In this document: positions 12,223-37,500 of the stretch, in pieces
How the letters are laid out: each line of letters starts with the position of its first letter
Position numbering within the stretch: position 1 is the stretch's first letter
From: a virus
DNA: 64,000 bases
IMG/VR virus record: IMGVR_UViG_3300025112_000005
Location: 16,206 to 80,205 of that record
Direction: 5' to 3' (one strand)
Program-made: the position numbers and the translations under genes
Notes under the pieces: generated by a model
Database searches by the model: none
Told to the model about the DNA's origin: nothing
What the model saw: the letters and a program-made list of their open reading frames with translations, nothing else

Positions 12223-12411
12223 TCCGCTTAGTTCGGAGCTGCCCCCGTCCCGGGGTACCGGAGGCGGGGAACGCGGGCACGCAGCGTCAACACCTTGACC
12301 ATGTAGCGGCAACCGGGCAGGATCAGGCCCTGCCGGCTTTATCCGCTCGCGCGAGCCCGCGTCAATCAACGGACGCTGGTAGGGTGGGCGGCTCAACCAC
12401 CGGAGGCTTAT

Positions 12412-19846: not shown

Positions 19847-19866
19847 AGCGAGAGGGAAAGCAGCAC

Positions 19867-21942
19867 ATGGCCATCAAGATCGCCAGCGACCAGATTCAGG
19901 ACAACGCCGTCCTGACTGCCGCGATCACCGACACCGCGGTCACCGCGGCGAAGCTCGCCAGCGGCGCCGCCGTCGCCAACGTCGGCACGGGCGGCATCAG
20001 CTCCACGGAGCTGGGGTCCGACTCCGTGACGCAGGCCAAGATGGCCGACGACTCAGTGGGCACCGCGGAGATGATCGACGCCAACGTGACCGCCGCCAAG
20101 CTGGCGTCGGGCGCTGCCGTGTCCAACATCGGCGCGGGTGGCATCACCAGCAACGAGATGGGCTCCACGGCCAAGAACAGCGCGCTCGCGTCGAAGGCGT
20201 GGATGGAGGAGGTGGTCAGCGCCGACGAGTCGAACCCGTCCGCGTCGTCCGTCGACATCAAAACTTCGCTGAGCTTCGGCACCACCACGGGAGTGGGCGG
20301 CGCCACCATCGGCGCCACCGCGGGCATCCCGGTGCTGATCGAAGAGACGGGTGGCGCCGACTCCGGCGACTGGAACAACACGGACTCCCGCCCCGCTGCC
20401 ATCGGCGGCGACGCGAAGCTCTACCGCTGCGAAGTCTTCAGCACCGCGGGTGAGGAGATCGTGGACGCGAACGAAAAGCGCGTCTGGGCGGTGATCACGT
20501 GTGACGGCACCCGCCTGACCACCGACGCCTACACCCTGCGCTTCATGTCCGGCGAGTACGGATCCGGCAACGAGGGGGCGTACACGATGGCACAAGCGTT
20601 CTTCATCGTGTACCCCCAGGTGACCGACCTGTCGAACATGACCCTGGGCTCCAACCGCCTGGGCATCGTCTCGATCAGCAAGGAAGCCGCGGGCATCGCC
20701 ACCGGCCAGATCGGGACGGGGGAGCTGGCCCTCGACGCCGTGACCCAGGCGAAGATGGCCGACGACTCAGTGGGCACCGCGGAGATCCTGAACGCGAACG
20801 TGACCGCCGCCAAGCTGGCGTCGGGCGCGGCCGTCTCCAACATCGGCGCGGGTGGCATCACCAGCAACGAGCTGGGCACGGGCTCAGTGATCGCGGGCAA
20901 GATCGCGACGGGCGGCGTTTCGGCGGCGGCTCAGCTCGCCGCAAACGTGGTCGAGACCGCGAAGATCCTCGACGCCAACGTCACGGCGGCGAAGCTCGCC
21001 AGCGGCGCGGCCGTCTCCAACGTCGGCGCGGGCGGCATCACTAGCAACGAGCTGGCCACGGGTTCGGTGATCGCGGGCAAGATCGCGACGGGTGGCGTTT
21101 CGGCCGCGGCTCAGCTCGCCGCAAACGTGGTCGAGACCGCGAAGATCCTCGACGCCAACGTCACGGCGGCGAAGCTCGCCAGCGGCGCGGCCGTCTCCAA
21201 CGTCGGCGCGGGCGGCATCACCAGCAACGAGCTGGCCGCGGGTTCGGTGACCGAGGCGAAGATGGGCAGCTTGCTGCTGTCCCAGATCCGCAACACCGAG
21301 TCGGTTGGCCCGCTGGAGACCAAGCTCGGTGGCATTCTAGGCAGCGGCGCGGCGTCCCTCGCCGCGGAGACTGCGCTGGCCGTCTCCGAGAAGGCCGCGC
21401 CGGACATGAGCGTGGACGTGGCCGCGGGCACGTCGTTCAACGAGAACGGCGACCGCTTCGTGCTGACCACCCTCCAGAACGTCTCGGTGAGCGCGGCGCC
21501 CACGGCCGGCAACAGCCGGTACGACGTGGTGGTCATGTACGGTGACGAGCTGGTTACGATCCGTGCGGGCACCCCCGCCGCCACGGGCTCGCACACCGAG
21601 CCGACCCTGACCACGGGCGACGTGAAGCTGGCCGTGGTCGACGTGGAGAACGGCGACACGACGATCGTGGATGCCAACATCTACGACCACCGTCGTCGTG
21701 CCAACTGCACCCGCGTGGCGGAGAAGTTCGCCCCGTCGGGCTCGGACGTGACACTGGCTTTCCGCACCCGCCGCGGCGACCCCCAGGTCTTCCGCAACGG
21801 TCTGCGCGGTGAGCAGGTCGCGGCGGCTGCGACCGATGCTGACCAGTACACCGTCGACCAGCTCCCCGAGCAGGACGCGACCATGATCACGTTCGGCGCG
21901 TCGGTCAGCGGGGACACCATCCTCGTGGACTACGAGGGCTGA
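19867..21942 (+). CDS. Repetitive head/collar fibre protein
   Basis: Repeated VTAAKLASGAAVSNxGAGGITSNEL units; C-terminal RYDVVV and FRNGL motifs. Confidence 0.8.
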   Translation: MAIKIASDQIQDNAVLTAAITDTAVTAAKLASGAAVANVGTGGISSTELGSDSVTQAKMADDSVGTAEMIDANVTAAKLASGAAVSNIGAGGITSNEMGSTAKNSALASKAWMEEVVSADESNPSASSVDIKTSLSFGTTTGVGGATIGATAGIPVLIEETGGADSGDWNNTDSRPAAIGGDAKLYRCEVFSTAGEEIVDANEKRVWAVITCDGTRLTTDAYTLRFMSGEYGSGNEGAYTMAQAFFIVYPQVTDLSNMTLGSNRLGIVSISKEAAGIATGQIGTGELALDAVTQAKMADDSVGTAEILNANVTAAKLASGAAVSNIGAGGITSNELGTGSVIAGKIATGGVSAAAQLAANVVETAKILDANVTAAKLASGAAVSNVGAGGITSNELATGSVIAGKIATGGVSAAAQLAANVVETAKILDANVTAAKLASGAAVSNVGAGGITSNELAAGSVTEAKMGSLLLSQIRNTESVGPLETKLGGILGSGAASLAAETALAVSEKAAPDMSVDVAAGTSFNENGDRFVLTTLQNVSVSAAPTAGNSRYDVVVMYGDELVTIRAGTPAATGSHTEPTLTTGDVKLAVVDVENGDTTIVDANIYDHRRRANCTRVAEKFAPSGSDVTLAFRTRRGDPQVFRNGLRGEQVAAAATDADQYTVDQLPEQDATMITFGASVSGDTILVDYEG
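20800..21250 (+). repeat. 180-bp (60-aa) tandem repeats in the fibre gene
   Basis: Near-identical 180-bp units starting near 20810, 20990 and 21170. Confidence 0.9.
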
Positions 21943-22002: not shown

Positions 22003-25000
22003 ATGAGTGGTGGCCGTGTCTATCGCGAGCGGGAGGCGGAGGGGCAGCTCGGCTTGTTTGGCCAGATGGTCCAGCAGGCGAAGCAGAAGAAGCCCCCCGC
22101 GCCCCGACCCCCCTCCCCCAAGCCGTCGGCCCCCCGCCCCCCTGCGGGCTACCACCCTGCGCCCCGGAGCCGTAAGAGCGGCTGGACGGACGGGCACGGG
22201 CACTACTGGTACGCGACCGGGCAGCACAACCACGCGAGCGGCGGCGAGGAGCACCCCGAAGCCGAGGAGATGGAGAACGACCGGGCGATCGACCTGCACG
22301 ACGACCAGATCCACGAGGAGCTGAACAACGGGCGTAGCTCGCAGCTCCGGCGCCGGAAGCTGAACCGGGAGAAGCGCCTACGCGCGAGCGCCGAGGAGCG
22401 CAGGCAGGCGGCGGAGAAGCCGAAGATCGGGCGCGTCGAGCACCCGAAGCCCGAGGAGCCCAAGCGCGGACGCGACGAGCTGGTGGAGGATGTGGACGTT
22501 CAGTCCTACCCACACAAGCGCGGAGCAAAGCACTATGTGCGCGGAGCGTCGCGAGATGCGGTGCTGGTGAGGCTCCGCGAGATGGGGGCTTCGGAGGGTC
22601 AAATCGAGTGGGGGCGGGAGGGCACACGGGAAGGGGCGTACCTGGGGCGGTACGTAGGAGAGTGGAACGAGCTGACGCCGAAGCCCGAGGAGCCCAAGCG
22701 CGGACGCGACGAGCTGGTGGAGACGGCCGAGGAGCCCCAGCCCGAGCCCCCCGAGGCGCCCGGTGAGCCCCCGCCCCAGGTAGAGCCGCCCGAGCCCGAG
22801 AAGGAGGGCGAGAGCGGGTGGGAGGAGTGGCGAAAGAAGCACCCGGAGCACACCGACGCGGAGCGGTTCCACCGAGCTGAAGCACAGCGCACCGGCAGCG
22901 CCACGCACGAACAGGCGGCGCACGCTCACCAGACGGCCCGCCGAATCGGGGGCTACCACAAGGCCCGCGCGTGGGACATGTCCCGGCTGGCGTTCGACGA
23001 GAAGCCGAAGCCGCTGGTGGAGGAGCCGCCCGAGCCGGAGGCGCCCAAGGCCGAAGACGCGGACCTGACGCACGCAAAGCAGCTCATGCGAGACCACATG
23101 ACGCGTGCCGAGGAGTACCGGAAGCACGACGGCGCCGAGGAGGTTGTGCGCGCGCACAGCGCGGCGGCTGTGCTCTGGTCGCGCGTCGCCATCGGGGATG
23201 CCGACCGCGGCGATGCCATCGACGCGACCGCGGCGGCAGGCAAGGCGGAGCTGGCGTACACGGCTACCCCCCCCGCGGGGCCGGTGGAACCCCCTCGCGA
23301 GGAACCACCGGCCCCGCTCCCCCCGCCCAAAGGTATGCCCTTGCCTGATCCCTATCGTATCCGCACGGCGGGGGAGTATGCCCGGCTCCCTGTTGGGAGT
23401 GTGGTGGAGAAGAAGGGGGGCGGCGTGTATGTGAAGACGCCCCAGGGGGGATGGGTGCATCAGCACCCAGACACCGGCCTGCACGACAGCGGCGGCGGTC
23501 CGGGGGGTGAAACGAAGGTGCTCGACGAAAAAGAGGGGTTGCTCTCGCTCGTATCTCACGCCCAGGTGTTGCCCGATGTGGTTCATATCCCGGTGCCGGG
23601 GAAGACGTCTGAAGACGCCCACCGGGTGGGCGCGTTCCTGTTGAGCGAGGAGGGTCGCGAGGCGCTGGCCTCTCGCGGCGTTCGTGCCTCTGGCATGTCG
23701 CTTGGTCCCGGCAATTCAATGATCTTCGTACACCGGACCCACGAAAAGCGCCCCGCCGACCCCCCCAGCGGTGTCGACACGCACGCGGGCGCGGTCAAGG
23801 CCGCGCGCTACGCGGACGGCGCGTTGCGCATCCCGATTCCGGCGCACGAGGGGGGGGCGAAGGCGGGCGCGAAGGCGCTGGGGATGTGGCTGATGGGGGC
23901 GGAGGGGCGCGCGGCGTTGGTGGCGCAAGCCGACCAGCTCGACGTGGTGCCCAACCTGCGCAAGATCCGCATCCAGAACGGGGAGATGGCGATCCTCGCG
24001 CGCCCGCTCACGGAGGCGGAGCTGAAGCAGCGGCGCGACGCGGCCAAGAAGCGCACACGGGGGCCGACGACGGGGGGCGGCGCGGCCCGCGGCATCGACC
24101 GGACGCGCGAGGCGGCGCTGGCCGCCCGCGGGCAGGACGGCAAGACCGTGGCCGCCCAGGTCGAGAAGGATGAGCGTGATTGGGGCGAGAAGATCGGCGG
24201 TGCGGCAAAGGACCGCTGGGACGCCGTGCACAGCCGCAACCTGGGCGCGATGGAAGAGGAGGAGGGCGCGGAGTTCGCCCACAAGCACGTGACCAAGGCG
24301 CGCGTGCTGGGCTCCCATGACCCCGAGCACGACAAGGCGCTGGGGTCGACCCCGGGCGCGAGCCTCATCAAGCGCGAGCTGTTCAAGAAGGTGGCCCCGC
24401 GGCCCGAGAACAGCCCCGGGCACCGGAGCAACTACGTCGCCGGCTGCGATTGGCTGGCGAAGATGATGGACGTGCTGCACCACGAGGACGATGTGGCGTC
24501 GTTCTTGGAGGACTGGAAGACCGTCGCGGTTGAGGGGACCGAGCGGGACGTAGACGCGAAGACGTTCGCGGATCTGCGCGAGACGCTGGGCATTGTTCTT
24601 TGGAATAGGATGCACGTCATAGACCATCACGCCGCCCCCGGTCGCTGGAGGAAGTTTAGCGCGCAGGGCCAATGGTGGGCGCTGCCTGCTACGGAGGCCC
24701 CCGGGGGCAGCTTCAAAGTGCTGCACCACGAAGGCGAATTTACGCCGCGCGAACAGGCGGAGTGGTTGGTTGCCGAGCCCAAGCGCCGGGACGAGCTGCG
24801 CGCGCTGAAGAAATCGCGCGGGTCGTGGGCGCTCCATCGTCGGACGCAGGACACGGAGCGGCTACAGCGGTACGCACGGGCGTTGGGCGGGTCGTTCAAC
24901 ACCCAGCTCACCAACAGCACATCGGGAAACAAGGATTCGGCGCTGTGGGTGCGGGTGAAGCAGGCACGGGCGGGTAGCACGGCTTGGGAGGATCTGGGCG

Positions 25001-26178
25001 TCGGCGTCGACAAGGAGAAGAAGAAGCGCGACAAGAAGGGCAACGCGCCCCGCAGCTCCCACAAGTGGAAGGGCAGCGTGGAGGGCGCGGAGCGCAAGGG
25101 CGGCCCGGCTGTCCCCGCAGTGATCACCGAGGAGAAGCTGGCGGCCGACTTCGGCATCAAGCGCGGCGAGTACGGGCGCAGCATCGGGAGCACGGGGGAG
25201 CTGCACCTGCGCAAGTGCTACGAGGCGTTCACGGATCTGGCGGACCTGCTGGGGCTCGACGCGCCCCAGATGGGGAACGGCGGCGAGCTGGCGATGGCGT
25301 TCGGCGCACGCGGGCGCGGCGGAGCCCGAGCGCACTACGAGACGGTGCGGAAGGTGATCAACATCACCAAGATGGCGGCGGGGTCGTTGGCTCACGAGTG
25401 GGGGCATTACCTGGACGACCTGATGGGGGGGGCGGGGCTGACCGAGGTGAAGGGGCGGACGCAAGCGCAGTTCGCCAGCCACGGCCCCGAGCAGTACGCC
25501 GAGGCGCTGGACCCGAAGCTCAAAGAGGCGATGATGGCGGTGCGCGCGGCCATTTTGAGCAAGGACCCGGAGGCGTCGCGACTTCGTGACAAGGCGCTGG
25601 AAAAGGCCCGGGGGCTGCACAGAGAAGCGCGCGAAGCATTCGACCAGCTCCGTGCGCTGTCGTACGGGGAGAAGCAAGGGGAGAAGGGTAGGGCGTTAGG
25701 ACTGAAGCGCGAAGAGCTTCGGGTGCAGGCGGCGGCGGCGGACAGGGTGGCGGCGCAGCTCAAGGAGAAGGCGGAGAAGCCGAGCAAGTACGCGGCGGAC
25801 GCCAAGAAGCTGGGCGGCTATTGGGAGCGCCCGCACGAGATGTTCGCGCGCGCGTTCGAGTCGTTCATTGAGGATTCGCTGGTCGAGCGCGGGCGTGTGT
25901 CCGACTACCTCGTGCAAGGGACCAAGCCGCTGCGCGACCTGTGGAAGAAGACCAAGGAGAAGGAAGGCCCGTTGTGGGACCGCACCGAGGTGGAGAAGAA
26001 GCACGAGGCGCTGGAGCCGTATCCGCAAGGGGATGAGCGGACGCGGATCAACACGGCGATGCGCGAGCTGGTGGAGGCGCTGAAGGGCTCGGATCACTTG
26101 CGCAAAGGCTTGACCAGCTACGTCTATGGAAGCATCTTCGGCCAGATGGTGGCTGACCGACTGCTGGGGGTTACGTGA
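22003..26178 (+). CDS. Giant polyvalent protein 3: LPD5-like + LPD1 (zincin-related) domains
   Basis: DWGEKIGGAAKD; LAMAFGARG...AHYE...SLAHEWGHYLD; YWERPHEMFARAFE...PYPQGDER. Confidence 0.85.
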   Translation: MSGGRVYREREAEGQLGLFGQMVQQAKQKKPPAPRPPSPKPSAPRPPAGYHPAPRSRKSGWTDGHGHYWYATGQHNHASGGEEHPEAEEMENDRAIDLHDDQIHEELNNGRSSQLRRRKLNREKRLRASAEERRQAAEKPKIGRVEHPKPEEPKRGRDELVEDVDVQSYPHKRGAKHYVRGASRDAVLVRLREMGASEGQIEWGREGTREGAYLGRYVGEWNELTPKPEEPKRGRDELVETAEEPQPEPPEAPGEPPPQVEPPEPEKEGESGWEEWRKKHPEHTDAERFHRAEAQRTGSATHEQAAHAHQTARRIGGYHKARAWDMSRLAFDEKPKPLVEEPPEPEAPKAEDADLTHAKQLMRDHMTRAEEYRKHDGAEEVVRAHSAAAVLWSRVAIGDADRGDAIDATAAAGKAELAYTATPPAGPVEPPREEPPAPLPPPKGMPLPDPYRIRTAGEYARLPVGSVVEKKGGGVYVKTPQGGWVHQHPDTGLHDSGGGPGGETKVLDEKEGLLSLVSHAQVLPDVVHIPVPGKTSEDAHRVGAFLLSEEGREALASRGVRASGMSLGPGNSMIFVHRTHEKRPADPPSGVDTHAGAVKAARYADGALRIPIPAHEGGAKAGAKALGMWLMGAEGRAALVAQADQLDVVPNLRKIRIQNGEMAILARPLTEAELKQRRDAAKKRTRGPTTGGGAARGIDRTREAALAARGQDGKTVAAQVEKDERDWGEKIGGAAKDRWDAVHSRNLGAMEEEEGAEFAHKHVTKARVLGSHDPEHDKALGSTPGASLIKRELFKKVAPRPENSPGHRSNYVAGCDWLAKMMDVLHHEDDVASFLEDWKTVAVEGTERDVDAKTFADLRETLGIVLWNRMHVIDHHAAPGRWRKFSAQGQWWALPATEAPGGSFKVLHHEGEFTPREQAEWLVAEPKRRDELRALKKSRGSWALHRRTQDTERLQRYARALGGSFNTQLTNSTSGNKDSALWVRVKQARAGSTAWEDLGVGVDKEKKKRDKKGNAPRSSHKWKGSVEGAERKGGPAVPAVITEEKLAADFGIKRGEYGRSIGSTGELHLRKCYEAFTDLADLLGLDAPQMGNGGELAMAFGARGRGGARAHYETVRKVINITKMAAGSLAHEWGHYLDDLMGGAGLTEVKGRTQAQFASHGPEQYAEALDPKLKEAMMAVRAAILSKDPEASRLRDKALEKARGLHREAREAFDQLRALSYGEKQGEKGRALGLKREELRVQAAAADRVAAQLKEKAEKPSKYAADAKKLGGYWERPHEMFARAFESFIEDSLVERGRVSDYLVQGTKPLRDLWKKTKEKEGPLWDRTEVEKKHEALEPYPQGDERTRINTAMRELVEALKGSDHLRKGLTSYVYGSIFGQMVADRLLGVT
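22444..22722 (+). repeat. 45-bp perfect direct repeat flanking a 189-bp in-frame insert
   Basis: CCGAAGCCCGAGGAGCCCAAGCGCGGACGCGACGAGCTGGTGGAG at 22444-22488 and 22678-22722. Confidence 0.95.
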
Positions 26179-27914
26179 GCTGGTGGGACCGCCTACGGGG
26201 GCGTGAGCCGGCGCCCTTGGTGGGCAGCGAGGCGTTCACGGACGCGATGGTGGCGATGGCGGTTGACGCGCTGGCAAAGGCGCAGTCGTTGGAGCCCAAG
26301 GGGAAGGCCCCCGAGCCCCAGGCGCACGATATCGACCCGTGGGACGTGTACGCCGCGGTGGGCGATGAGGGGATGCTGGGCCAGCAGCACCTTGGCACCG
26401 CGGGGCTGGACTACACCACGCTCATGTCGATGGCGCGGGTGCCCACGATCGCGGGCATCATCCAAACGCGGGTGAACCAGATCGGGGAATTCGCGTGGCC
26501 CGCGTACGAGGAGGGCTCGCTGGGCTTCCAGATGCGGCTCCGCGACCGGGAGAAGACCCCGACCAAGGCACAGCAGAAGCGCATCCACGAGCTGACGGAT
26601 TGGATGGTGAGCTGCGGCGACGAGCGTATCGGCTTCGAGCTGAACATGGAGAGTTTCCTACGGATGCTCATGCGCGACTCGCTGACCTACGATCAGGCGA
26701 CGTTCGAGGTGGTGCGCACGAAGGGCAAGGACGTGGCGGGGTTCGTGCTCGTGGACGCGTCCACGGTGCGCCGTGCGATCCCGACCGAGGAGGAGCGCGA
26801 CGCGGGGATCCGGCGCAAGGACGACCAGATCGCGTTTGTGCAGATCTTGGGCGACGAGGTGGTGGCCGAGTGGACGGCGCGGGACCTTGCCTTCTGCGTG
26901 CGGCGCCCGCGGTCGGCAATCGCGATCCAGGGGTACGGCTACCCCGAGCTGGAAGACCTGATCCGGGTGATCACCAGCATCCTGCACGGCGAGACCTACA
27001 ACGCGAACAACTTCACGCACGGGATGCACACGGCGGGGATTCTGGCTCTCAAGAGCAAGATGAACCCGAAGATGTTCCGAGCGTTCCGGCGCGAGTTCTA
27101 TGCGCTGATGAGCGGTGCGTACAACGCCAAGAAGACGCCAATCGTACAGCTCGACCCGGACGCGAAAGAGGAGCTGCAAGCTATCAACTTGAGCCAGTCC
27201 AACCGGGATATGGAATTCAAGGAGTGGATGGCATACCTCCAGAAAGTCGCGTGCTCGATCTACCAGATCGACCCCGCCGAGCTGGGCTTCGTCCACGGGG
27301 CGGAGAACCAGACCGGCGCGCTCTCCCAAGGCGGCCCCGAAGCGCGCATCACTGCGTCGAAAGAGAAGGGGCTGCGCCCGCTGTTGCGTGGCGCCCAGGT
27401 GTGGCTCAACCGCTGGGTCGTGTCCCAGGTAGACCCGGACTTCGAGCTGGTTTTCGTCGGGCTCGACAAGGCCCGGCAAGATGCGCAGTTCGAGGCGGAC
27501 CTGAAGCGGCTCAAGGGTTTTATGACGCCCAACGAAATTCGCGCGCGCTACGACCTGAAGCCCATTCCGCCCGAAGTCGACGGCGGCGCGGCCGACATGA
27601 TTCTGGATTCGTCGTACATGAACACGGCGATGCAGCTCCGCCAGATGGCCCAGATGGACGAGGAGGGCGGCGAGGAGCCCGGGGGCGGCGGGGGCGAGGA
27701 GCAGGGCGACGAGTCACAGGGCGAGGAGCCCGGCGAAGAGACCGATGCGTCGCAGGGCTGGGACATGGACGACGACGACGTGGACCTGGACGCGCTGTTC
27801 GGTGGACCCCAAGGCGATGAGCCCGACGACGACGACGACGACGACGAGGACGAGGACGAGGACGACGACGACGACGACGAGGACAAGGTGAAGAAGGCGC
27901 TGGTGGAGGTCTAG
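26175..27914 (+). CDS. Portal protein (SPO1/Twort-like) with an acidic tail
   Basis: IIQTRVNQI, RDSLTYDQ, GYGYPELE, DMEFKEW, IDPAELG, SKEKGLRPLL, TPNEIR. Confidence 0.93.
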   Translation: MSWWDRLRGREPAPLVGSEAFTDAMVAMAVDALAKAQSLEPKGKAPEPQAHDIDPWDVYAAVGDEGMLGQQHLGTAGLDYTTLMSMARVPTIAGIIQTRVNQIGEFAWPAYEEGSLGFQMRLRDREKTPTKAQQKRIHELTDWMVSCGDERIGFELNMESFLRMLMRDSLTYDQATFEVVRTKGKDVAGFVLVDASTVRRAIPTEEERDAGIRRKDDQIAFVQILGDEVVAEWTARDLAFCVRRPRSAIAIQGYGYPELEDLIRVITSILHGETYNANNFTHGMHTAGILALKSKMNPKMFRAFRREFYALMSGAYNAKKTPIVQLDPDAKEELQAINLSQSNRDMEFKEWMAYLQKVACSIYQIDPAELGFVHGAENQTGALSQGGPEARITASKEKGLRPLLRGAQVWLNRWVVSQVDPDFELVFVGLDKARQDAQFEADLKRLKGFMTPNEIRARYDLKPIPPEVDGGAADMILDSSYMNTAMQLRQMAQMDEEGGEEPGGGGGEEQGDESQGEEPGEETDASQGWDMDDDDVDLDALFGGPQGDEPDDDDDDDEDEDEDDDDDDEDKVKKALVEV

Positions 27915-30388
27915 TGCTCGACCGCATCCTGGGAGAGCTGGAGAACCACGAGCGGTGGGCGCGGTGGCACGAGGGCACGCGCCGGGGCGACTGGCACCAG
28001 CGGCAGATCCAACGCATCACCGAGCGACTGGCCAAGTGCGAACGGCGCCCCGTAACCGGCGCCCCCTTCCACGACATGCTCGCCAAGGCGCGAGCGCACA
28101 AGTACATCCGGCGCGTGCCCAAGCCGGGCGGGGGCTACCGCTACTTCTACGACGTGGCGGGGGCTCGCGGGCTCGCGCACAATGATGAGCTGGTCGAGGG
28201 CGCGAAGTTCAAGCACGAGGGCGGGCACATCGAGGTTGTCGCCCAGCACGGTGACCGGGTGCAGATCCGGCACGACGAGTCGGGCGAGACCCTGACCGTT
28301 GACCGGGAGGAGCTGCGCCAGAAGCTCCACGAGTACCACGCGGAGAGCATCGCCGAGCACAAAGAGAAGACGCGGCGCAGCCTGGAGGAGACGGGCCGCC
28401 ACGGGAGCGAACGGCAGAAGGCCCGCGAGGAGAAGAGGGCCGCCCGGTACGCGTATTGGGATGCTCCCGCGGTGCGGGCGCTGCTGTACCCCAAGCCCGC
28501 GGGGCTGGAGCATGAGCCCGCGCGCTCCAAGCCCGTTCACGTCGTCCCGTACAGCCAGATTGACCGCACCTGGGAGCGTGATATCCCCGCGCTGGCGAAG
28601 GCGGGGCTGAAGACGTACGACGACCTGCACAAAGCCGGGCCGGACAAGATCGCCGCGGTGCTGGGGCGGGGGCGGCGAGACGCCGCGCAGCAGCTTTGGC
28701 GCACGGCGGACATGCGCAGCGGGTCGAGCAAGGCGCGCGCGAAGAAGCTGCACGAGACCGACCACCCCGATTGGGTGCCGGATCTGAGTCAGTACGACGT
28801 GATTCTGGTGAACACGTCCGGGGGCAAAGACTCCCAGGCGATGATGGACCGGACGCTGGAGCTGGTCGATTCGCAGGGCATCGACCGAGCCAAGGTGGTC
28901 GCCGTACACGCCGACCTGGGGCGCGTCGAGTGGGAGGGCACCAAAGAGCTGGCCCAGGCGCAGAGCGACCACTACGGCATTCGCATGGAAGTGGTGAAGC
29001 GCCAGAAGAACGACCTGCTTCAGCACATCGAGCAGCGGTACTACCAGCTCACGAACCGGATCGCGGACACCAAGGCGCTGGGCGGGCTGGAGACCTGGGG
29101 CGACCTGTACGACATGCTCCCCGAGCCGAAGGGGAAAGGCGCCGCGGAGGAGCGGCGTTGGAAGGCGGAGAAGGCGGCACTGGCAGAGCAGATCGCCGCG
29201 CGGCTCCCCGATGCGCACACCGATTTTTGGCCGCCCGACTTCGAGGGCAACCCGAGCCTGCACCACACCGTCGACAAGCTGATCCGTGCGAAGTACATCG
29301 TGGACAGCGCGGTGAGGAATCGGAACGCGGCTACCAAGTGGGCGGCCAAGAGCGAGAAGGCCAAGGCGAAGGACAAGCGGCCGAAGCTGGCGGGGGATTC
29401 GCTGGATTGGGGGATGCCGAACCCCTGGCCGGACAGCGGGGCGCGGTTCTGCACTAGCGAGCACAAGCGCGCCAGCATCCGAGCGCTGATCACGAATCTG
29501 GTGACGGCGCACAAGAAGGCCAACCCCGGCACGGGCAAGCCGCGCATCCTCAACACGATGGGGTTGCGTGCGCAGGAGTCGAGCGAGCGCGCAAATAAGC
29601 TGCTGTTCGAGCACGACAAGGACACCAGCTCCGGCGCGCGGTCGGTGGACACGTACTTGCCGATCAGTGGGTGGTCCGAAGAGGAGGTGTGGGACCGAAT
29701 CCGTGAATCGGGCGTTCCGCACCACGTCGCCTATGAGCTGGGGATGCGGCGGCTGTCGTGCGTGTTCTGCGTGTTCGCGGACGGGCACGACCTGCTGACC
29801 GCGGCGGCCAACAACCCCAACCTGTTCAAGCAATACGTGGAGCTGGAGAGGCGCTCCGGGTTCACGTACCAGCAAGGCAAGTTCGCCAAGGAAGACGCGG
29901 CGAAGATGGCGGAGTCACACCCCGCGTACGCGTCGTTGGCGGGGAAGCCCAAGAGCTTCGCGGCGGTCGACGAGGCGCTGAAGACGTTCGCGGCGGAGAA
30001 CCCCGAGGGGTTCCGCGTGATGCAGCAGATCGCCGAAAAGAAGAAGGAACAGCACGCGGTGCTGGGGCTGGTCGCCAGCGACGACCTACGGGCGCTTCTG
30101 AAGGCGCTGGGCGTCGATGACGACGACGGTACGCACACCCTGCTGTCGGCGCTGCACCACAACCTCGCGCAGCTCCGCAAGGCGGGGATGAAGGTGCACG
30201 CGGTGCAGTACGATTACCGCCCCAGCGGCGCGGTGGTGCAGCTCGACACGGAGCACGACTCGTTCTTCTGCGGCTCGCTCCCCTACCCAGAAGCCTACGC
30301 AGGAAGCACCGCAGCGGCTATCATGGCGCGGGCCGCGGGACTCGACTACGAGGAGCACGGTAGCCCCGATCAGCAGGAGGCGGTGTGA
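27914..30388 (+). CDS. Giant protein 4: HhH + PAPS-reductase-family (DndC/SspD-related) PP-loop enzyme
   Basis: SGGKDS, HADLG, FCTSEHK, GLRAQES, LPI..W....VW, RLSCVFC; upstream HhH-like LAKAGLKTYDDL...LGRG. Confidence 0.88.
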   Translation: MLDRILGELENHERWARWHEGTRRGDWHQRQIQRITERLAKCERRPVTGAPFHDMLAKARAHKYIRRVPKPGGGYRYFYDVAGARGLAHNDELVEGAKFKHEGGHIEVVAQHGDRVQIRHDESGETLTVDREELRQKLHEYHAESIAEHKEKTRRSLEETGRHGSERQKAREEKRAARYAYWDAPAVRALLYPKPAGLEHEPARSKPVHVVPYSQIDRTWERDIPALAKAGLKTYDDLHKAGPDKIAAVLGRGRRDAAQQLWRTADMRSGSSKARAKKLHETDHPDWVPDLSQYDVILVNTSGGKDSQAMMDRTLELVDSQGIDRAKVVAVHADLGRVEWEGTKELAQAQSDHYGIRMEVVKRQKNDLLQHIEQRYYQLTNRIADTKALGGLETWGDLYDMLPEPKGKGAAEERRWKAEKAALAEQIAARLPDAHTDFWPPDFEGNPSLHHTVDKLIRAKYIVDSAVRNRNAATKWAAKSEKAKAKDKRPKLAGDSLDWGMPNPWPDSGARFCTSEHKRASIRALITNLVTAHKKANPGTGKPRILNTMGLRAQESSERANKLLFEHDKDTSSGARSVDTYLPISGWSEEEVWDRIRESGVPHHVAYELGMRRLSCVFCVFADGHDLLTAAANNPNLFKQYVELERRSGFTYQQGKFAKEDAAKMAESHPAYASLAGKPKSFAAVDEALKTFAAENPEGFRVMQQIAEKKKEQHAVLGLVASDDLRALLKALGVDDDDGTHTLLSALHHNLAQLRKAGMKVHAVQYDYRPSGAVVQLDTEHDSFFCGSLPYPEAYAGSTAAAIMARAAGLDYEEHGSPDQQEAV

Positions 30389-33300
30389 GCCAGCTCGGAC
30401 TCTTCAGCCACGTGGTCCAACAGGCGACGGCGAAGCCGAAGCCGAAGCCGAAGCCGAAGCCCGGGGGACACCACCACCCGCCCCCCGGCTACCACCCCGC
30501 GCCCCGGAGCCGTAAGGGCGGCTGGACGGACGGCAAAAACTACTGGTACCCCGGCGATCCGCACCCGAAGCCCCGGGCGGCGGCAGCCGAGCCCGAGCCC
30601 ACTCCGACACCGCACCCGGAGCCCGTGGCGCCTACGACACCCCCGGAGCAGGCCACCGTGTTCGGGGGCGAGCACAGCAGCGTCACGCAGGAGCCCGAGG
30701 AGACACCCGCGCCGACGGAGCCGACCCCCGCGGTGGTGGTTGAGCCCGCGGCCGAGCCCGAGCACGCCAAGCCTGACGAGCTGTGGGCAGACGAAGACGA
30801 CGATTTTGACGACCCCGACGGCGACGGCTTCGATCTGTGGGACCTGATGGCCGAGGAGGGCGTGGCAGCGCCCGAGGAGCACGAGGCGGAGCTACTACAC
30901 CCCGACTGGTCGGCGGAGCCGAGCGAGCGCCCCCAGGGGCAGGCGGAGCTGGTGGGCGAGGAGGAGGAGCCCGCGGAGGAGCCCGCGGAGGAGCCCGCGG
31001 AGGAGCCGGGGACCGAGCAGGAGACTGAAGCCGACGACATGGCGCGTCGGATGCAGGAGCGGTTGAAGGAACGCGCGGCGCAAGAAGGCGCGGAGCGCGA
31101 AGCCCGTGTGGCGGCGGAAGAAGCGCAGCTCGCCGAAGAGCTGCGGCTGGCGTCCTTCGCGTATGGCTACGAGGTGCCCCAGCACGCGGTGCTGCCCCGG
31201 GAGCTGGACGAGAAGGCCCGTTACCGGCTGTGGGTGAAGGACGGCGACGCGTGGACGCGTGTCGATGAGCCGGAGGGGGTGTTTCGGCACAAAGGGGGGA
31301 TGTTCCGAGGCGCTTGGGTGCGTCCCGTATGGGACCGGACGCTTGAGGCGTACGAAGGGCAGTCCCCCGTCTTCATGCCCAGCGACCGCGTTCCGGCGTC
31401 GGAGGCGTTGGGCGCGCTGATCAAGATCGGGGAGCACGAGGTCAGTCCCGACCGACCGCCGAATTTCCTGGGGTTGATCCCCGAGAAGCTGGTGCGTCGG
31501 CGCCTTGTCACGGTGGAAGACGAGGACGGGAAGCCCGTACGGGACGAAGATGGCCGGTTGGTCCAGAAAGAGGGCGCGCTGGCGGGCGCGGGTGCGTCCC
31601 GGCAATACCGGGATTACTACAGCGGCAACCTCGTTTGGGCGCACGACAACATCCAGTCCCAGGATTGCACGGACACGTGGCTGATCGAGTCGGGGTTCTA
31701 CGACGCGGTGCAGGGTCCGGCGACGGGGACCGACCGGCATGGCGAGCCGATCAGCCTGTCCGACCAGCAGCGCGACCGGCGGCTGGCGGTGCTGCACAGC
31801 AACGTCCAGGGCATCGACTGGCTGAAGCTGCGGGAGCAGAAGCACGTCAAGATCTGGGAGAAGACGCAGCGCGATTTGACGGCGTGGTGGACCAACATCA
31901 CCAACGAGCAGCGCGAGCACTTCTGGACGAACTACTGCCACCGGGACAAGCAGAACACGCTGGCGAAGACTGCGGATCCGCGCCATGAGCTGGCGGAGTT
32001 CGCCGTGCCGAAGGGCATGGAGAAGATGTCGGCGCTGCGGGGTCCCTACTGGCGGGAAGACGCCACGACCTGGGCAGACGCAGAGCACACGATCCCGTGG
32101 CACGACCGGGACCCCGACAACCCCAAGCACGGCAAGCCGTGGGACTTCCACGTCTACCAGAAGAAGGCGGCCAACTTCGTCGTGGACCATGCGCCGCGTT
32201 CCATCCTCGCGATGGAGATGGGGCTGGGCAAGACCCTAACCGCGCTGGGCGCGTTCCACGAGCTGAAGCAGCGCGGCGAAATCGACCAGATGATCGTAAG
32301 CGCCCCGGTGAGCGCGATGGGGAGCTGGGAAGAGCACTTCGGGGATCTGTCCGACGCGCGGGTGGGCATCGCGAACGGATCCAAGAAGCAGAAAGAGCGG
32401 GTCGTCCAGCAGTTCGAGCGCGGCGAGCTGGACGTGTTGGTGGTGACCACGGACGCAATCGCCATCGACATGAAGAAGGCGAAGGAGCTGGACGAGGTTC
32501 CCAAGGGCGCCAACAAGGTGACCCTCAAGATGAAGGGGAGCTATCGAGGCGCGACCTGGGAGACTTCGTTTCTCCACCGACGGACGGACGGGGAGGGTTT
32601 CTCGATATTCCCTGATACGCGCAAGCTGGCGGGGTGGGATGACATGCGTATAAGCCTGGGCAATCCGCTGGGCTACCAGAAGCACGCGCATGACGAGGAG
32701 CGAAGGCGACAGAGCGGCGGTAAGAGCTACAGCAATGCTATGGCGGAGGCCCGTCGCGCGATCTTAGAGGAAGCGCCCGAAGGGGCCACTATGCAGACGT
32801 ACGACGGCTACCTGCGCAAGATGGCTGACGGCACGTGGGCCGCACCGCGCGAAGATCGGGGCGGGTGGAAGGCCGGGAGGCGTACGTCTGATTCGATCTG
32901 TGGGCGGGGGGATCTGACGGTCTGCTCTGCCCGACACTTGTCCGGCGAGGTGAAGCGCATTCAGCTGGATGCGGGGGATGTCAAGCTCGCGTACGAGAAT
33001 CCCGAATCCAACAAGGCGCGTCTCCAGGCGATGATGGAGGCCAAGGGGAAGCGGACGCTGCGCGTTGCCGACGAGCTGCACAAGTTCAAGAACCCCAACA
33101 GCAACCGCGCCCGTGGCTTCTTTGACGTGTTCACCGAGCCCGAGGGGCGGGTGATCGGAATGACCGGCACGCCCAAGCCCAACGGGATGCAGGACTTTTA
33201 CACCATCATGGACCACGTGGCACCCGGCAGCCTGGGCGACACCTACGCCGATTTCTCGGAGCGGTACAGCTACCGTTACCGGGCGTTCGGGGCGGACAAG

Positions 33301-34350
33301 GTGGCGGGGCTCCGGCCCGAGCAGTTGCCGAAGCTGTACGAGGACAGCGCGCACGTGATGTTCGTGCGGACCACCAACGACCCGGACAGCAAGATCATCT
33401 TGCCCAAGCGCCGCGACCTGTCCCCGTCGATCCCCCTGTCCGATTTTCAGGAGAAGGTCACGACGGCCTTTGGCGAGTGGGTCGCGGTGAAGCGCGTGAT
33501 CCAGATCCTCGGCAACCGGGAGAACCCCGGGCCGGAGTACGAGGCGGCCGTGGAGAAGCTGGCGGCGGCTGAGCGCGGAGACATGGGGAGCGTTGCCCAG
33601 GTGGCCGCGTCGGGGGCGCATACGGACGCGCAGGTAATGCTGATGCGTGCTCAGCAGCTTGCGATCAGCCCGTCGTTGCTGTCCCCCGCCTGGGGCGAGG
33701 CAAACCCGGGGTATGAGTCGCCGAAGACGAAGCTGGTGGCCGATTCGTTTCAAGAGCACATGAGCCAGCAGCCCAGCACGGGCGGCGTGATCTTCTGCAC
33801 GTTCAACGACGGAATCGCGGAGATGCAGCGGGCGTTGGTCCGGCGCGGGTTCCGTGAAGACCAGATCGCCGTCTACAAAGGCGGCGTGACGCCCAAGAAG
33901 CGCGCGGAGATCCAGAAGAAGCTGAACAGCGGCGAGCTGAAGGTGGTGCTGGGCAACTCGGCGTCCCTACAGACCGGCGCAAACATGCAGAAACGCGCCA
34001 ATTTTGTGGCGCACCTGTCGACCCCGTGGGCTCCCGACGCACTCACGCAGAGCACGGCGCGCGTGTACCGGCAGGGGCAGCAGAACGTCACCACGATCCT
34101 GCGCCCCGTGGGGTCCGACGCGGAGGCGCTGGTGGAGCGGGTGGTCAGTCGCAAGCTAATGGAGGCGGGGCAGGCGACCGGCAAGACGATGGCGGCGGAC
34201 AAGGCGGTGGCGGAGACTGTCCGCGGGGCCAAGCTGGACGCCGCATCAATCGCGAAGGTGCTGGGCATCGACCCCGCGAACTTCGGCAGCGAAGAGCTGA
34301 CCGACGCGCTTCGTGAGGAGCTGGGCATGGAGCTTCCCGAGGAGGATTGA
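30385..34350 (+). CDS. Giant protein 5: SNF2-family helicase/ATPase with a long N-terminal mosaic region
   Basis: MEMGLGKT, ADELH, MTGTP, SPKT, TGANMQ, QSTARVYRQGQ. Confidence 0.92.
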   Translation: MSQLGLFSHVVQQATAKPKPKPKPKPGGHHHPPPGYHPAPRSRKGGWTDGKNYWYPGDPHPKPRAAAAEPEPTPTPHPEPVAPTTPPEQATVFGGEHSSVTQEPEETPAPTEPTPAVVVEPAAEPEHAKPDELWADEDDDFDDPDGDGFDLWDLMAEEGVAAPEEHEAELLHPDWSAEPSERPQGQAELVGEEEEPAEEPAEEPAEEPGTEQETEADDMARRMQERLKERAAQEGAEREARVAAEEAQLAEELRLASFAYGYEVPQHAVLPRELDEKARYRLWVKDGDAWTRVDEPEGVFRHKGGMFRGAWVRPVWDRTLEAYEGQSPVFMPSDRVPASEALGALIKIGEHEVSPDRPPNFLGLIPEKLVRRRLVTVEDEDGKPVRDEDGRLVQKEGALAGAGASRQYRDYYSGNLVWAHDNIQSQDCTDTWLIESGFYDAVQGPATGTDRHGEPISLSDQQRDRRLAVLHSNVQGIDWLKLREQKHVKIWEKTQRDLTAWWTNITNEQREHFWTNYCHRDKQNTLAKTADPRHELAEFAVPKGMEKMSALRGPYWREDATTWADAEHTIPWHDRDPDNPKHGKPWDFHVYQKKAANFVVDHAPRSILAMEMGLGKTLTALGAFHELKQRGEIDQMIVSAPVSAMGSWEEHFGDLSDARVGIANGSKKQKERVVQQFERGELDVLVVTTDAIAIDMKKAKELDEVPKGANKVTLKMKGSYRGATWETSFLHRRTDGEGFSIFPDTRKLAGWDDMRISLGNPLGYQKHAHDEERRRQSGGKSYSNAMAEARRAILEEAPEGATMQTYDGYLRKMADGTWAAPREDRGGWKAGRRTSDSICGRGDLTVCSARHLSGEVKRIQLDAGDVKLAYENPESNKARLQAMMEAKGKRTLRVADELHKFKNPNSNRARGFFDVFTEPEGRVIGMTGTPKPNGMQDFYTIMDHVAPGSLGDTYADFSERYSYRYRAFGADKVAGLRPEQLPKLYEDSAHVMFVRTTNDPDSKIILPKRRDLSPSIPLSDFQEKVTTAFGEWVAVKRVIQILGNRENPGPEYEAAVEKLAAAERGDMGSVAQVAASGAHTDAQVMLMRAQQLAISPSLLSPAWGEANPGYESPKTKLVADSFQEHMSQQPSTGGVIFCTFNDGIAEMQRALVRRGFREDQIAVYKGGVTPKKRAEIQKKLNSGELKVVLGNSASLQTGANMQKRANFVAHLSTPWAPDALTQSTARVYRQGQQNVTTILRPVGSDAEALVERVVSRKLMEAGQATGKTMAADKAVAETVRGAKLDAASIAKVLGIDPANFGSEELTDALREELGMELPEED

Positions 34351-34351
34351 C

Positions 34352-34555
34352 ATGGACACAGATCTGACCCCCCAAGAGGCTACGGAGCTGCTTCGGATGC
34401 TCTGCCCCGTCGGCGGGATGAACCCCGCGGAGCCGGAGCCCGTGGAGCGCGCGCGGTTGTGCCGGCGCCTCTACGACCACATCAAGGCGGACAACGGGCT
34501 GGTGCCCAACTGGCTCAAGCACGACGTGTCCAACATCGTCGGCCCCGCTGCGTGA
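34352..34555 (+). CDS. Small hypothetical protein
   Basis: GGAGG RBS; GTGA overlap with the next gene. Confidence 0.6.
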   Translation: MDTDLTPQEATELLRMLCPVGGMNPAEPEPVERARLCRRLYDHIKADNGLVPNWLKHDVSNIVGPAA

Positions 34556-37500
34556 GCAGCGGACCCTTCATCGGCCCCCGGGGCGGGAAGTGGGCAGACG
34601 CCCAGCACACCGTCCCGTGGCATAGCTCCGAGGGGCGCGACCGGAGGCAGACCAGCCTGCTGGGCGCGGACGACGAGGGCACCAAGCGAAAGAAGCCCCT
34701 GCAACGACTGCGTGAGGGGGAGGTGATGGCGTTCCTCCAATCGCACGGGCACCGAGCGGGGAGCCATGCGGAACCGGGCGGTCACGGAGAGAGCGGGGTC
34801 CACACGCGCCAGCACTCCCGGCAGCAGGTCGAGGTGCGGCACGTCGAGTCACACCACCGGGACCACACGGGGCGCATCCAGCTCCCGGGGGGGGAGCACG
34901 AGGCTCTGAAGAAGCACGAGGCCCGCCAGCACGCCAAGGTGGTGGAGAAGCTGAAGGCTGCGGGGTATCACGTGCGCACGGACGCCGTGGGGCGGACGCT
35001 GGTCGGTCGGCGAGGGGGAGCGCCCGAGCACGGCCCCCAGCGTGTGCAGGCGGCGAGGCCGAAGAAGAAGCTGGAGCTGGTGGTGGACAACACGCAGCCG
35101 GGGCTGTTCAAGTCGATGGTGGTCCGAGCGCTGTGCAAGGCGCAGGGAGGCCCTTTCATCGGCCCCCGCGGCGGCAAGTGGGCGAACGCCCAGCACACGG
35201 TCCCGTGGAAGCCCAGCGGCGGGGTGTTGCGGGTGGACGCGGCCCTTGTCCGTGAGACTGTGGACGGGTGGTTTTCTGACTTGCGAGCGATGCCGGGACA
35301 ATCCCGGTCGTCCATGATCGAGTACACCCAGGCGGACGGGGCAAAGCGTCGCGCGGTGGCACAGATCGTTGTAGAGGCGAGCACGGGCGATCCGCGAGGC
35401 GTGAAGGGCATCCACCATTACCGGACCACGGGGCAGGGGGGGATGCACAAGGTCGTTGTGCACATCAGTATGCGAAAGCTGGCGGGGAAGATTGATACAG
35501 CCAAGGAGGCGGTGCGTTCCGTTCTTGCGCACGAGCTGACACACGCGGCCGACGTAGGGCTCCAGAAACGCGCAGAGCGACGCGCACGTGCTCATTTCTC
35601 AGGGGACAGTAAGGGCGCCGAGCGTCTGAGGGCGAGGGACCATAGCGACGGGTCGGCCAACTACTTCAACCAACCGCATGAAGTCACAGCGAAGATGCAG
35701 CAGATTCAGCGGGAGTTGTTGGACCCGGGTGTGGGGGGCGCGCTGGTCGAGGATGCAAAAAACCACGCGGACGACCCAGACAACCCGCCGCCGATGACGC
35801 CCGCGCAACTGCTTGAGTGGGAGAGCCCCTCCTGGGGTGAGGTGAAAGAGCACTATACCCCCGAGAACAAGAAGCGTGTGCTGCGTATGGTGGCGAAAAC
35901 CCATGCAGCGCTTTTGTCGGGAGAACTGGAGCCTGTGAAGAAGGCGGGGCCGTTCTCCTACATGGTGCTGGACGCGCTGGCGAAGGCCGCGAAGGGCGAG
36001 AGGCGGCAGGGCGCGAAGTACATTCGGCGCGTGCCCAAGCCCGGGGGCGGCTACCGCTACTACTACGCGGAAAGCAGCGCGGCGCGGTCGGCGACCGAGG
36101 GCGAGGACGTGCGGCTGGGCGACAAGCTGACCCGGGTCCACAAGGTCCATGCGCACGGTATTGAGATCGAAGACGAGAAGGGCAAGCGCACAGTCTCGCA
36201 CGACGAGTGGTCCCACATGCTGCACGAGCATTACGGCTCGCGCTTCTACGAGTGGGCAGAGAAGCGCGCGCGGCAGTACGCGGGCGCGGTGCTCAAGCAC
36301 GTTCCCGCGGAGCTGTTCAACGAGCTGAAGGGCGAGACCGACGCCGAGCGCATGGCGGACCTGAAAACCCGGCTGCCCGACGTGCACGCGAAGCTGGAGA
36401 AGGCGTTTTCGCGCGCGGGCGTCAGTCCCGAGGATGCGCACCGCGCTATCTCGCACGTGCTGGAGCGCAAGGGGTGGACGGGCGGCGCCCGGCAAACGCT
36501 CCTGGGGTCGATGCTCAACCGCGAGACGGCGTGGACCGTTCGGCACTACCGGAGGCTGAGCAAGGCCGCGGAGAACTTGGCGAAGGCCGACGGCGCGGAG
36601 CTGGTCGACCAGAAGCATGTTGCGGCGGCCATCGCGTTGCCGCGCACGGCGACGGCGATGGACCGCGTGGTCAACCGCGCGACGGCGGAGATGCACCACA
36701 TTCGCGCGGTGCTGAAGCTCCAGCTAACCCCGGGGGAGAAGAAGGAGGAGCAGGGCGCGCTGGCGCTGGACACGAAGATGTCCGCTGAGGCGCTGGCAAA
36801 AGTGCGCGCGGCGCACATGATCGGCCAGCTCTCTGTGATGGCTCAAGCGTTCCCGGGGCTGGCGTCGGATCCGGCCATGCAGCAGCTTCGTGTGCTGCTG
36901 GGCAGCCTTCAGTCCGTGGCTCCGCGCACGGAGCCGACGGCGAAGGGCGCGCAGACCACGGTGTACGTCGCGGGCGAATTCGGTTCCCCCGAGCCCATGA
37001 CCGCGGAGTACGCGCTGGTCGACGCGGCCGAACTGACTGCGAGCCACGACCCCGTGACGTTCGCGCAGAACGAGGCGCACGACATCGGCAACGAGCGCGC
37101 GTATCACCGCGACAAGGCCGAGCGGGCGAAGGTGATCAAGAACGCCGAAGACCTGAAGCCGGATCTGGTGATCAACACCAACCCGGACGCGACCAACGGC
37201 GCCCCCATCGTGGACGAAAACGGGGTGGTGTTGGGGGGCAACTCGCGCACCATGTCCATGCAGCGCGTTTACCGGATGGGAGGCGCCCAGGCGGCGGACC
37301 TGAAGGGGTACCTGAAGGGACAGGCGCGACAGTTCGGGTTCAAGCCCGGCGACGTGGAGGCGATGGCCCAGCCGATCCTCGTGCGGAAGGTCCAGCCCCA
37401 CGACGACGACCACAAGCGGCTTCTGGTGCGCCAGCTCAACGAGACGTTCATGCAGGCGATGGATCCGCGCACGATGGCGGTCGCGCAGGCGGCGCGGCTG

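Follow-up and report, generated by a model that had tools for sequence, protein, structure and literature searches.

A 64,000-nucleotide stretch of viral DNA (hereafter the window), corresponding to bases 16206-80205 of the 80,205-bp IMG/VR virus record IMGVR_UViG_3300025112_000005 and with a G+C content of ~68%, encodes, directly after its portal gene, an 824-amino acid (aa) protein containing a domain that resembles 3'-phosphoadenosine 5'-phosphosulfate (PAPS) reductases. Our preferred interpretation, to which we assign a probability of roughly 0.55, is that this PAPS-like protein is an ATP pyrophosphatase that is directed at DNA, probably has an Fe-S site, functions in DNA modification or anti-restriction and is possibly delivered by the capsid. 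The components of this interpretation are not equally secure. Judged from its sequence, the protein is very probably a PP-loop ATP pyrophosphatase and not a sulfonucleotide reductase, and it probably acts on DNA. Delivery in the virion, which is read from gene position and architecture only, has even odds, and phosphorothioation, proposed by analogy, would be a doubtful choice of chemistry. The open reading frame (ORF) and its catalytic domain are laid out as follows.

27914..30388, + strand: PAPS-like ORF (protein P0001), 824 aa
28766..29038, + strand: PP-loop (adenine-nucleotide alpha-hydrolase) domain, first half, residues 285-375, with SGGKDS at 28817-28834
29429..29893, + strand: PP-loop domain, second half, residues 506-660, with Cys513, Lys518, Glu555, Cys616 and Cys619
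29450-29452, 29759-29761 and 29768-29770, + strand: codons of Cys513, Cys616 and Cys619, respectively

The three motifs that a first-pass annotation had read from the DNA letters are all present where it had placed them: SGGKDS at 28817 (residues 302-307, nt 28817-28834), C-T-S at 29450 (residues 513-515, nt 29450-29458) and SCVFC at 29756 (residues 615-619, nt 29756-29770). The gene span that it proposed, 28589-29900, takes in these sites but covers only residues 226-663 of the 824-aa ORF. The protein belongs to Pfam PAPS_reduct (PF01507), scoring 51.6 bits against a gathering threshold of 22.5. An alignment in a single stretch reaches only profile positions 105-172, as an insert splits the domain, and a genome search recovers both halves. 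It is likewise a member of PHROG 424 (phrog_424; E 4.6e-32, 112.6 bits, residues 294-659). An exhaustive phmmer search (E<=1e-3) returned 2203 relatives, and conservation was counted in a hidden Markov model (HMM) alignment of the best 150 of them. S302, G304, K305, D306 and S307 are kept in 140-141 of 140-141 rows, C513 in 150/150, C616 in 144/147 and C619 in 145/145, and K518, R552, E555 and R559 are essentially invariant as well. Together with the PAPS_reduct and phrog_424 scores, this conservation argues that the motifs did not arise by chance. It also bears on the idea that the protein is a non-catalytic decoy that blocks host Dnd, Ssp or BREX-4 components or a sulfur relay. A decoy would be consistent with the domain-level resemblance to DndC, SspD and BrxP, and with a genetic tie, which specifies no mechanism, between a phage PAPS domain and escape from Dnd (see below). 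That the PP-loop, Lys518, Glu555 and the three Cys are almost fully conserved in >140 diverse relatives argues instead for catalysis, as do fusions of related domains to InPase, and we consider a decoy very improbable.

An AlphaFold2 (AF2) model of the full-length protein, built from a 60-sequence alignment, has a mean predicted local distance difference test (pLDDT) score of 86.8. The fold search placed it near TilS (1ni5, Z 14.2), the adenosine 5'-phosphosulfate (APS) reductases 2goy (Z 14.1, 196 residues aligned, root-mean-square deviation 3.7) and 7lhr (Z 13.8), NcsA (Z 12.8), TtuA (Z 11.2) and QueC (Z 10.7), with GMP synthetase also within 10.7-14.2. A canonical SGGxDS PP-loop within an alpha/beta nucleotide-binding fold places the domain among the PP-loop ATP pyrophosphatases, and it would accordingly convert ATP to AMP + PPi. 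Because the Z values of these PP-loop neighbors are effectively tied, the fold does not pick a substrate. Foldseek searches of the PDB gave nothing at E<=0.001, with 2goy at 1.4e-3, and 2goy was also the sole match of the whole protein in a PDB sequence search (E 0.31). In APS reductase, the Cys pair of a C-x-x-C motif ligates a 4Fe-4S cluster; C616 and C619 align to these two Cys in 2goy (phmmer alignment), and we infer that C513 is the counterpart of the Cys-Cys pair of APS reductase. The candidate cluster site contains only three Cys (C513, C616 and C619), which, by sequence, would occupy the Fe-S position of the APS reductase/DndC type and form a probable Fe-S site. A three-Cys, open-site Fe-S arrangement is known from the TtuA/NcsA class of sulfur-inserting PP-loop enzymes.

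With the clade's shared motifs SGGKDS, R-[FY]-C-T-S-x-x-K and S-C-x-F-C all present, the protein falls within the phage "PAPS reductase" clade (phrog_424) and appears to lie outside every characterized family. This placement was made by scoring against curated models and by scoring E. coli CysH and YbdN on a profile of the relatives. On that profile, Streptomyces phage Gilgamesh gp116 and Pseudomonas phage Dolphis gp103 reach 344 and 234 bits, E. coli YbdN (an IbrA paralogue) reaches 32 bits and E. coli CysH 17 bits. Among the characterized families, CysH (NF002537, 24 bits against a cut-off of 154), APS reductase (TIGR02055, 25.7 against 235.3) and DndC (TIGR03183, 19.2 against 290.4; PADLOC DndC models, which have no curated cut-off, 19-20) were rejected. 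The SspD model of PADLOC (PDLC02782), also without a curated cut-off, gave 17.2 bits (E 8e-4). BrxP was set aside at 33 bits in PADLOC (no curated cut-off), as the match covers profile positions 214-338 of 779 only, and PglZ and BrxC had no match in a PADLOC scan of five large neighboring ORFs. IbrA/YbdN was set aside too: no DUF3440 is found at E<=0.01, and YbdN fails to align over the Cys motifs CTS and SCxxC. The DndC and SspD scores therefore do not bear out the kinship with these phosphorothioation proteins to which the first-pass annotation had appealed. No DndC or SspD structure appears in either fold-search listing, and Dnd partners are absent from the PADLOC matches of the neighbors, a scan that spanned the five large ORFs only. 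Neither Aminotran_5 (cysteine desulfurase of the DndA/IscS or SspA type) nor InPase was found in the 80-kb phage genome.

The conventional reading of such genes is that they are auxiliary metabolic genes, here a true PAPS or APS reductase that would boost host sulfate assimilation. The Pfam and PHROG names point in this direction, the closest structures include APS and PAPS reductases, and several papers interpret phage homologues in this way. CysH-type enzymes, however, carry a C-terminal catalytic Cys in an ECGLH-type motif, and sulfonucleotide reductases have a degenerate PP-loop. In the window protein, SGGKDS is intact and invariant among its relatives, residues 620-784 contain no Cys that could act as this nucleophile, and a 7-sequence alignment has no invariant Cys column after C619. 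With a PP-loop that is intact and no Cys where CysH has its catalytic one, a role in sulfate assimilation is very unlikely. The low scores on the CysH and APS reductase models, that of E. coli CysH on the family profile, and the fusion of this domain into polyvalent proteins with ParB and InPase (described below) also speak against the metabolic reading, which we regard as scarcely credible. The earlier proposal that the enzyme acts on DNA rather than in sulfate assimilation survives in its negative half, and DNA modification or anti-restriction fits the context; the sulfur chemistry that was proposed with it stays conjectural.

Two further elements of the protein lie before and within the PP-loop domain.

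28571..28717, + strand: helix-hairpin-helix (HhH)-like three-helix segment, ~residues 220-268
29039..29428, + strand: helical insert of ~128 aa, residues 376-505, all-helical, pLDDT mostly >85

An insertion of about 120 aa had been suspected at 29040-29410, and the spacing from PP-loop to CTS confirms it: 209 aa against a family mode of 81, or ~128 aa extra. Consistent with this, 366 query residues align to 220 positions of phrog_424, and tblastn matches to isolated phages split into two pieces around the insert. Besides the mode of 81 aa, found in short relatives, spacings of ~95-130 and 139-165 aa occur; because these intermediate classes exist, the site is an insertion hot-spot. The HhH-like segment also had been predicted, and only part of the evidence agrees. 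Its residue pattern fits, as do the helices of the AF2 model (220-229, 235-250 and 255-267), but Pfam HHH_5 matches residues 226-257 below threshold (E 0.036, 15 bits against a cut-off of 27). The relatives have no significant Pfam HhH match, DUF4332 alone appearing at E ~0.07. A common pattern opens the inserts of 17 relatives: L-x-x-AG-[IV]-x-T-W-x-D-L-A-x-A-x-P-x-x-[IV]-x-x-x-I-G-E-G-K-G, after which comes a long helix rich in Lys, Ala and Glu. A profile made from these inserts finds its best match in the query not in the insert but at residues 222-264 (24 bits, independent E-value 1.4e-6), and its match to residues 382-403, at the start of the insert in the query, is weak (4.8 bits). From these scores, the query's subclade (P0001-P0005) carries an intact module before the PP-loop domain and a degenerate copy inside it, so that a remnant of the relatives' HhH-like module opens the insert. 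DNA binding through the HhH-like elements is likely on this sequence evidence. In a maximum likelihood tree of the domain core with the insert removed, sampled from the query's own 150 best hits, all 18 forms with long inserts (>=186 aa) and 9/17 of those with an insert of 139-165 aa fall in one group of 28 (Shimodaira-Hasegawa-like approximate likelihood ratio test support, 89). The query's subclade (92) adjoins a set of domains embedded in polyvalent proteins (98).

These embedded relatives provide a context for the window protein. The insert-bearing PAPS-like domain is found inside proteins of 1768-2488 aa. In a Pfam scan of nine such giants, ddrB-ParB was found in 4, InPase in 4, and LPD1, DUF6884 and GNAT in 1 each; local HMMs applied to 23 PAPS-bearing proteins of at least 1000 aa found ddrB-ParB in 5, InPase in 6 and the N-terminal module described below in 8. 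Apart from InPase and GNAT, the partner domains of the giants occur in the window as separate neighboring ORFs. With one catalytic domain in 824 aa, the window protein itself does not fall under the multi-effector definition of a polyvalent protein, whereas its domain relatives do. Because its closest domain relatives are polyvalent and it shares the N-terminal module with them, it is best read, by sequence, as a single unit of the phage-type polyvalent-protein toolkit that here stands unbundled and is expressed together with the head genes. The main text of the paper that defined polyvalent proteins (PMC5512222) mentions ddrB-ParB, InPase, SNF2 and LPD domains and contains no occurrence of a PAPS-reductase or PP-loop domain. 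The evidence points to two new elements, namely the PAPS-like clade as a polyvalent-protein module and a new architectural variant of an uncharacterized phage enzyme clade.

The two ends of the protein contain the following domains.

28076..28453, + strand: N-terminal module, ~residues 55-180, LAKA-RA-HKYIRRVPKPGGGYRYFY, a beta-rich core and then helices
30011..30385, + strand: C-terminal alpha/beta domain, ~residues 700-824, conserved in P0002-P0005 and P0123

The AF2 model starts with two helices (residues 1-42) and a disordered linker (43-64). Pfam matches nothing in residues 1-204, even at E<=10. The neighboring ParB ORF has a copy of the N-terminal module at residues 520-605, and the module is present 2-5 times per protein in giant polyvalent proteins that lack a PAPS domain, usually heading each functional unit. 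As a Pfam-less unit of ~100-130 aa, it was seen in P0008, P0009, P0031, P0034, P0037, P0051, P0067, P0091, P0147 and P0156, with the pattern [LIVM]xK[ASG]-xx-HKY[ILV][RK]R-x(5-15)-YRY[FY]Y, then GAxFKHEGGH, then IRHDETGE. An [LIVM]-x-K-[ASG] site lies within 10 residues before the HKY[ILV][RK]R core in 37/42 copies, against a background rate of 3.7%, and the query's LAKA (residues 55-58) falls in the disordered linker. Such a site fits a unit boundary and is possibly cut by the head protease, but it could equally belong to the fold of the module. The module as a whole may be a packaging or adaptor domain. For the C-terminal domain, residues 643-824 folded alone (pLDDT 81) and compared with 48,161 PDB representatives gave a best Z of 6.3, which is within noise. 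A double-stranded RNA-binding domain-like alpha-beta3-alpha fold was considered for it and received no support from the PDB fold search; an Atlas feature search with residues 660-824 was uninformative (<=0.77).

The ORF lies in the head region of the phage, among the following genes.

12165-14408: terminase large subunit
14632-18594: 1320-aa ORF with DUF6884
19834-21942: fiber-like ORF
22003-26178: 1391-aa ORF with LPD1
26175-27914, + strand: portal
27903..27907, + strand: Shine-Dalgarno GGAGG, 7 nt before the GTG start of the PAPS-like ORF; portal TAG at 27912-27914, in a TAGTG overlap
30385-34350, + strand: SNF2-family helicase ORF, co-translated with the PAPS-like ORF
34459-38961, + strand: 1500-aa ORF, ddrB-ParB domain plus a single copy of the N-terminal module; probable functional partner
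39289-40329: MuF-like minor head protein
40326-41009: head protease
41750-43192: major capsid protein
46890-48848: tail sheath

The adjacency to the portal gene noted at first is correct: the portal TAG stop overlaps the PAPS-like GTG start by 1 nt. The PAPS-like stop in turn overlaps the SNF2 GTG start in GTGA, with AGGAGG upstream. Given these stop/start overlaps and the GGAGG and AGGAGG sequences before them, we read portal, PAPS-like and SNF2 as translationally coupled late genes. The related phage L006, at 60-72% protein identity, has the same succession of genes (portal, PAPS-like, SNF2, ParB, MuF, protease), and the full-length homologues P0002 (71%) and P0003 (61%) have the same N-terminus as P0001. 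Several other features of these genes were observed. The portal C-terminus (27740-27900) contains an extremely acidic Asp/Glu-rich run of ~60 residues before the coupled PAPS-like start. The SNF2 ORF has a helicase core whose halves lie ~190 residues apart (N-lobe at 591-700, next motifs from ~890), and its best defense-system look-alikes are the ZorD, DrmD, DpdE and BrxH helicases. The giant ORFs at 22003-26178, 30385-34350 and 7925-11017 have in common a second short element in their N-terminal regions, consisting of Q-L-G-L-F, a Pro/Lys-rich run and GYHPAPRSRK[SG]GWTDG..YWY; it shows 72-82% BLAST identity over ~28 aa between otherwise unrelated proteins and is present in L006 as well. The ParB ORF has GPFIGPRGGKWA[DN]AQHTVPW twice (residues 35-56 and 231-252), both GPFIGPRGGKWA copies preceding the shared N-terminal module and the ddrB-ParB domain, which suggests a chain of several units within one ORF.

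Two of these neighbors had been suggested as cargo partners of the enzyme. The ddrB-ParB fusions in relatives support the ParB protein well in this role. The "TGT-like" partner fared worse: no HMM match to tRNA-guanine transglycosylase (TGT), DpdA or Beta_protein was found in the genome, and BLAST showed no similarity to the annotated TGT of Gilgamesh, gp114. The remaining candidate is the ORF with DUF6884 (14632-18594), whose DUF6884 domain spans residues 596-731 (E 2e-23) and also matches the PADLOC candidate defense protein PDC-M57A (E 7e-13). Its residues 880-1320 (17269-18591) have no Pfam match at E<=10, no PHROG match and no PDB sequence match. An Atlas language-model feature search places them at 0.91-0.93 to "T4 beta protein" clusters and, in the same score range, to a cluster with DpdA in 17% of its members. 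In L009, the product of the gene directly after a PAPS-like ORF is homologous to the DUF6884 ORF at residues 954-1206 (46% over 259 aa), and in P0014, DUF6884, a PAPS-like domain and InPase share one polypeptide.

Because this region travels with the PAPS-like gene, it keeps open the possibility that the enzyme modifies a DNA base and not the backbone, by adenylation of a carbonyl followed by thiolation or amination in the style of TtuA/TtcA, TilS or QueC. The pathway may be shared with the DUF6884 cargo protein, which perhaps holds a DpdA-like base-exchange domain. In addition to these fusions, adjacencies and Atlas scores, base modification would be in keeping with TilS, NcsA, TtuA and QueC standing at the same Z level (14.2, 12.8, 11.2 and 10.7), with the three-Cys site of the TtuA/NcsA class and with Gilgamesh gp116 lying two genes from an annotated TGT. 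The failed TGT, DpdA, Beta_protein and gp114 searches tell against it, no deazaguanine synthesis genes were seen, and a thio-base in natural DNA is not known. We consider base modification possible but unlikely.

The mechanism that we favor for the DNA-directed ATP pyrophosphatase is as follows. The HhH-like elements would hold the enzyme on DNA, and the PP-loop would spend ATP to adenylate a DNA oxygen with release of pyrophosphate (PPi). The backbone phosphate, as in DndC/SspD, would be the most economical substrate. The Cys3 site would then supply or position the incoming group, sulfur from host IscS being the leading candidate. Phage DNA modified in this way would evade host restriction, for instance by Dnd-type systems, with the SNF2 motor and the ddrB-ParB protein as likely helpers. 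That the enzyme would release PPi is suggested by the intact PP-loop and by the recurrent fusion to InPase, which would pull the adenylation reaction forward. The resemblance of the three-Cys site to the open-site Fe-S arrangement of TtuA/NcsA makes phosphorothioation or thiolation the leading guess for the chemistry, and since the phage has no cysteine desulfurase, the sulfur would have to be host-derived. DNA as the target is suggested by the HhH-like elements, the ddrB-ParB and SNF2 partners, the DNA methyltransferases that flank the Dolphis homologue and the TGT near Gilgamesh gp116. In Dolphis (L004, MT711888.1 76905-78883), gp103 lies between a MazEF pair and a DNA methyltransferase, which is followed by a 213-aa "adenylosuccinate synthase", and the region looks like an anti-defense or DNA-modification islet. 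A role in restriction evasion is suggested by work on a Vibrio phage, where a PAPS-Dam fusion gene and an adjacent gene, transferred together, gave escape from Dnd (10.1101/2021.05.05.442762). The authors describe this escape as "related at least in part" to the PAPS domain, and it is so cited in PMC13551039.

The target could instead be something other than DNA, such as host tRNA or other RNA, a protein or a small molecule, in which case the protein would be an anti-defense or takeover effector with DNA-binding-like parts that serve only to localize it. Characterized PP-loop relatives mostly use tRNA or metabolites, and a protein target is conceivable from the QueC-like Cap9 (9nto, Z 12.0), which according to its entry title is in complex with NDG-modified CdnD. 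Many host-directed effectors are also found in polyvalent proteins (PMC5512222). Against this, the domain is recurrently fused to or located beside ddrB-ParB, SNF2 and DNA methyltransferases, and in the one case where a phage PAPS domain was studied genetically, the defense involved is based on DNA modification; we regard a target other than DNA as quite improbable.

Several points weigh against a DNA-directed, capsid-delivered pyrophosphatase. The DNA-directed activity of the clade is deduced from sequence and context, and the HhH assignment is sub-threshold in Pfam for query and relatives alike. Scores are far below those expected of DndC and are also low against the SspD and BrxP models; the genome lacks a cysteine desulfurase, and no DndD/E-type partner was seen. 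The structural neighbors TilS, NcsA, QueC and TtuA mostly act on RNA or free bases, and zinc, as found in QueC, could take the place of an Fe-S cluster at the three Cys. An oxygen-labile cluster would be an awkward and fragile virion passenger. In Burkholderia phage JC1, the gene for a short PAPS reductase (gp65) lies among virion genes and adjoins a DarB-like giant, and virion mass spectrometry did not find gp65, although it detected the neighbors.

A bolder version of our preferred reading is that the PAPS-like unit, SNF2 and ddrB-ParB together form a capsid-delivered writer that sulfur-modifies incoming phage DNA, on backbone or base, in the first minutes of infection. Such a writer would draw on ATP and a host IscS relay, with the motor and a ParB nickase/NTPase taking the places of DndD/SspC and DndE/SspB. 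We treat this as speculative and improbable; an injected phage machine for sulfur modification of DNA was not described in the literature searched. If a DNA mark were written from the infecting particle, it would represent a new route of restriction evasion, and an injected writer would explain what the recurrent PAPS-like module of polyvalent proteins does. Phage "PAPS reductases" are abundant, as the 2203 relatives illustrate, and are routinely annotated as helpers of sulfur metabolism. The window locus and its relatives tie one lineage, marked by the HhH-like insert and by ddrB-ParB and InPase fusions, to the polyvalent anti-defense toolkit, which argues against the metabolic reading and yields a testable model of ATP-dependent, DNA-directed modification.

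Compared with known systems, the window protein shares features with several and matches none in full. Among CysH-type reductases (2goy, 7lhr, 1sur), 2goy is a close structural match whose C-x-x-C is aligned to C616/C619, but the window protein has an intact ATP PP-loop, lacks the C-terminal catalytic Cys and has Cys-Thr in place of Cys-Cys. IbrA/IbrB and E. coli YbdN/YbdM pair a PP-loop enzyme with a ParB-superfamily protein, as does the window; IbrA and YbdN, unlike the window protein, carry DUF3440, and YbdN is distant on the family profile. With DndC, SspD and BrxP it has in common the superfamily, an intact SGGKDS, Cys at the probable Fe-S position and an association with ParB-like proteins and an ATPase/helicase, whereas the scores are weak and the partners DndA/D/E and SspA/B/C were not found beside it. 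Protein p0018 of Vibrio phage 44E38.1 (10.1101/2021.05.05.442762; Piel et al. 2022) similarly ties a PAPS-like domain to DNA-modifying functions and is linked genetically to escape from Dnd; it is a Dam fusion, where the window has an HhH-like segment, SNF2 and ParB. Gilgamesh gp116 and Dolphis gp103 (PHROG 424) have the same catalytic domain and invariant motifs. These examples are stand-alone proteins of 246-363 aa, Dolphis gp103 without the insert and Gilgamesh gp116 with a short spacer only, to which the window protein adds the N-terminal module, the HhH-like segment, the 128-aa insert, the C-terminal domain and a site in the head operon. Phage-type polyvalent proteins, including those like P1 DdrB/DarB (Iyer, Burroughs, Anand, de Souza & Aravind 2017, PMC5512222), embed the same insert-bearing domain in chains of 1.8-2.5 kaa. 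The window unit differs from them in being a separate ORF with a single catalytic domain, yet its locus resembles theirs, with LPD1, SNF2 and ddrB-ParB giants arranged around the portal and MuF genes.

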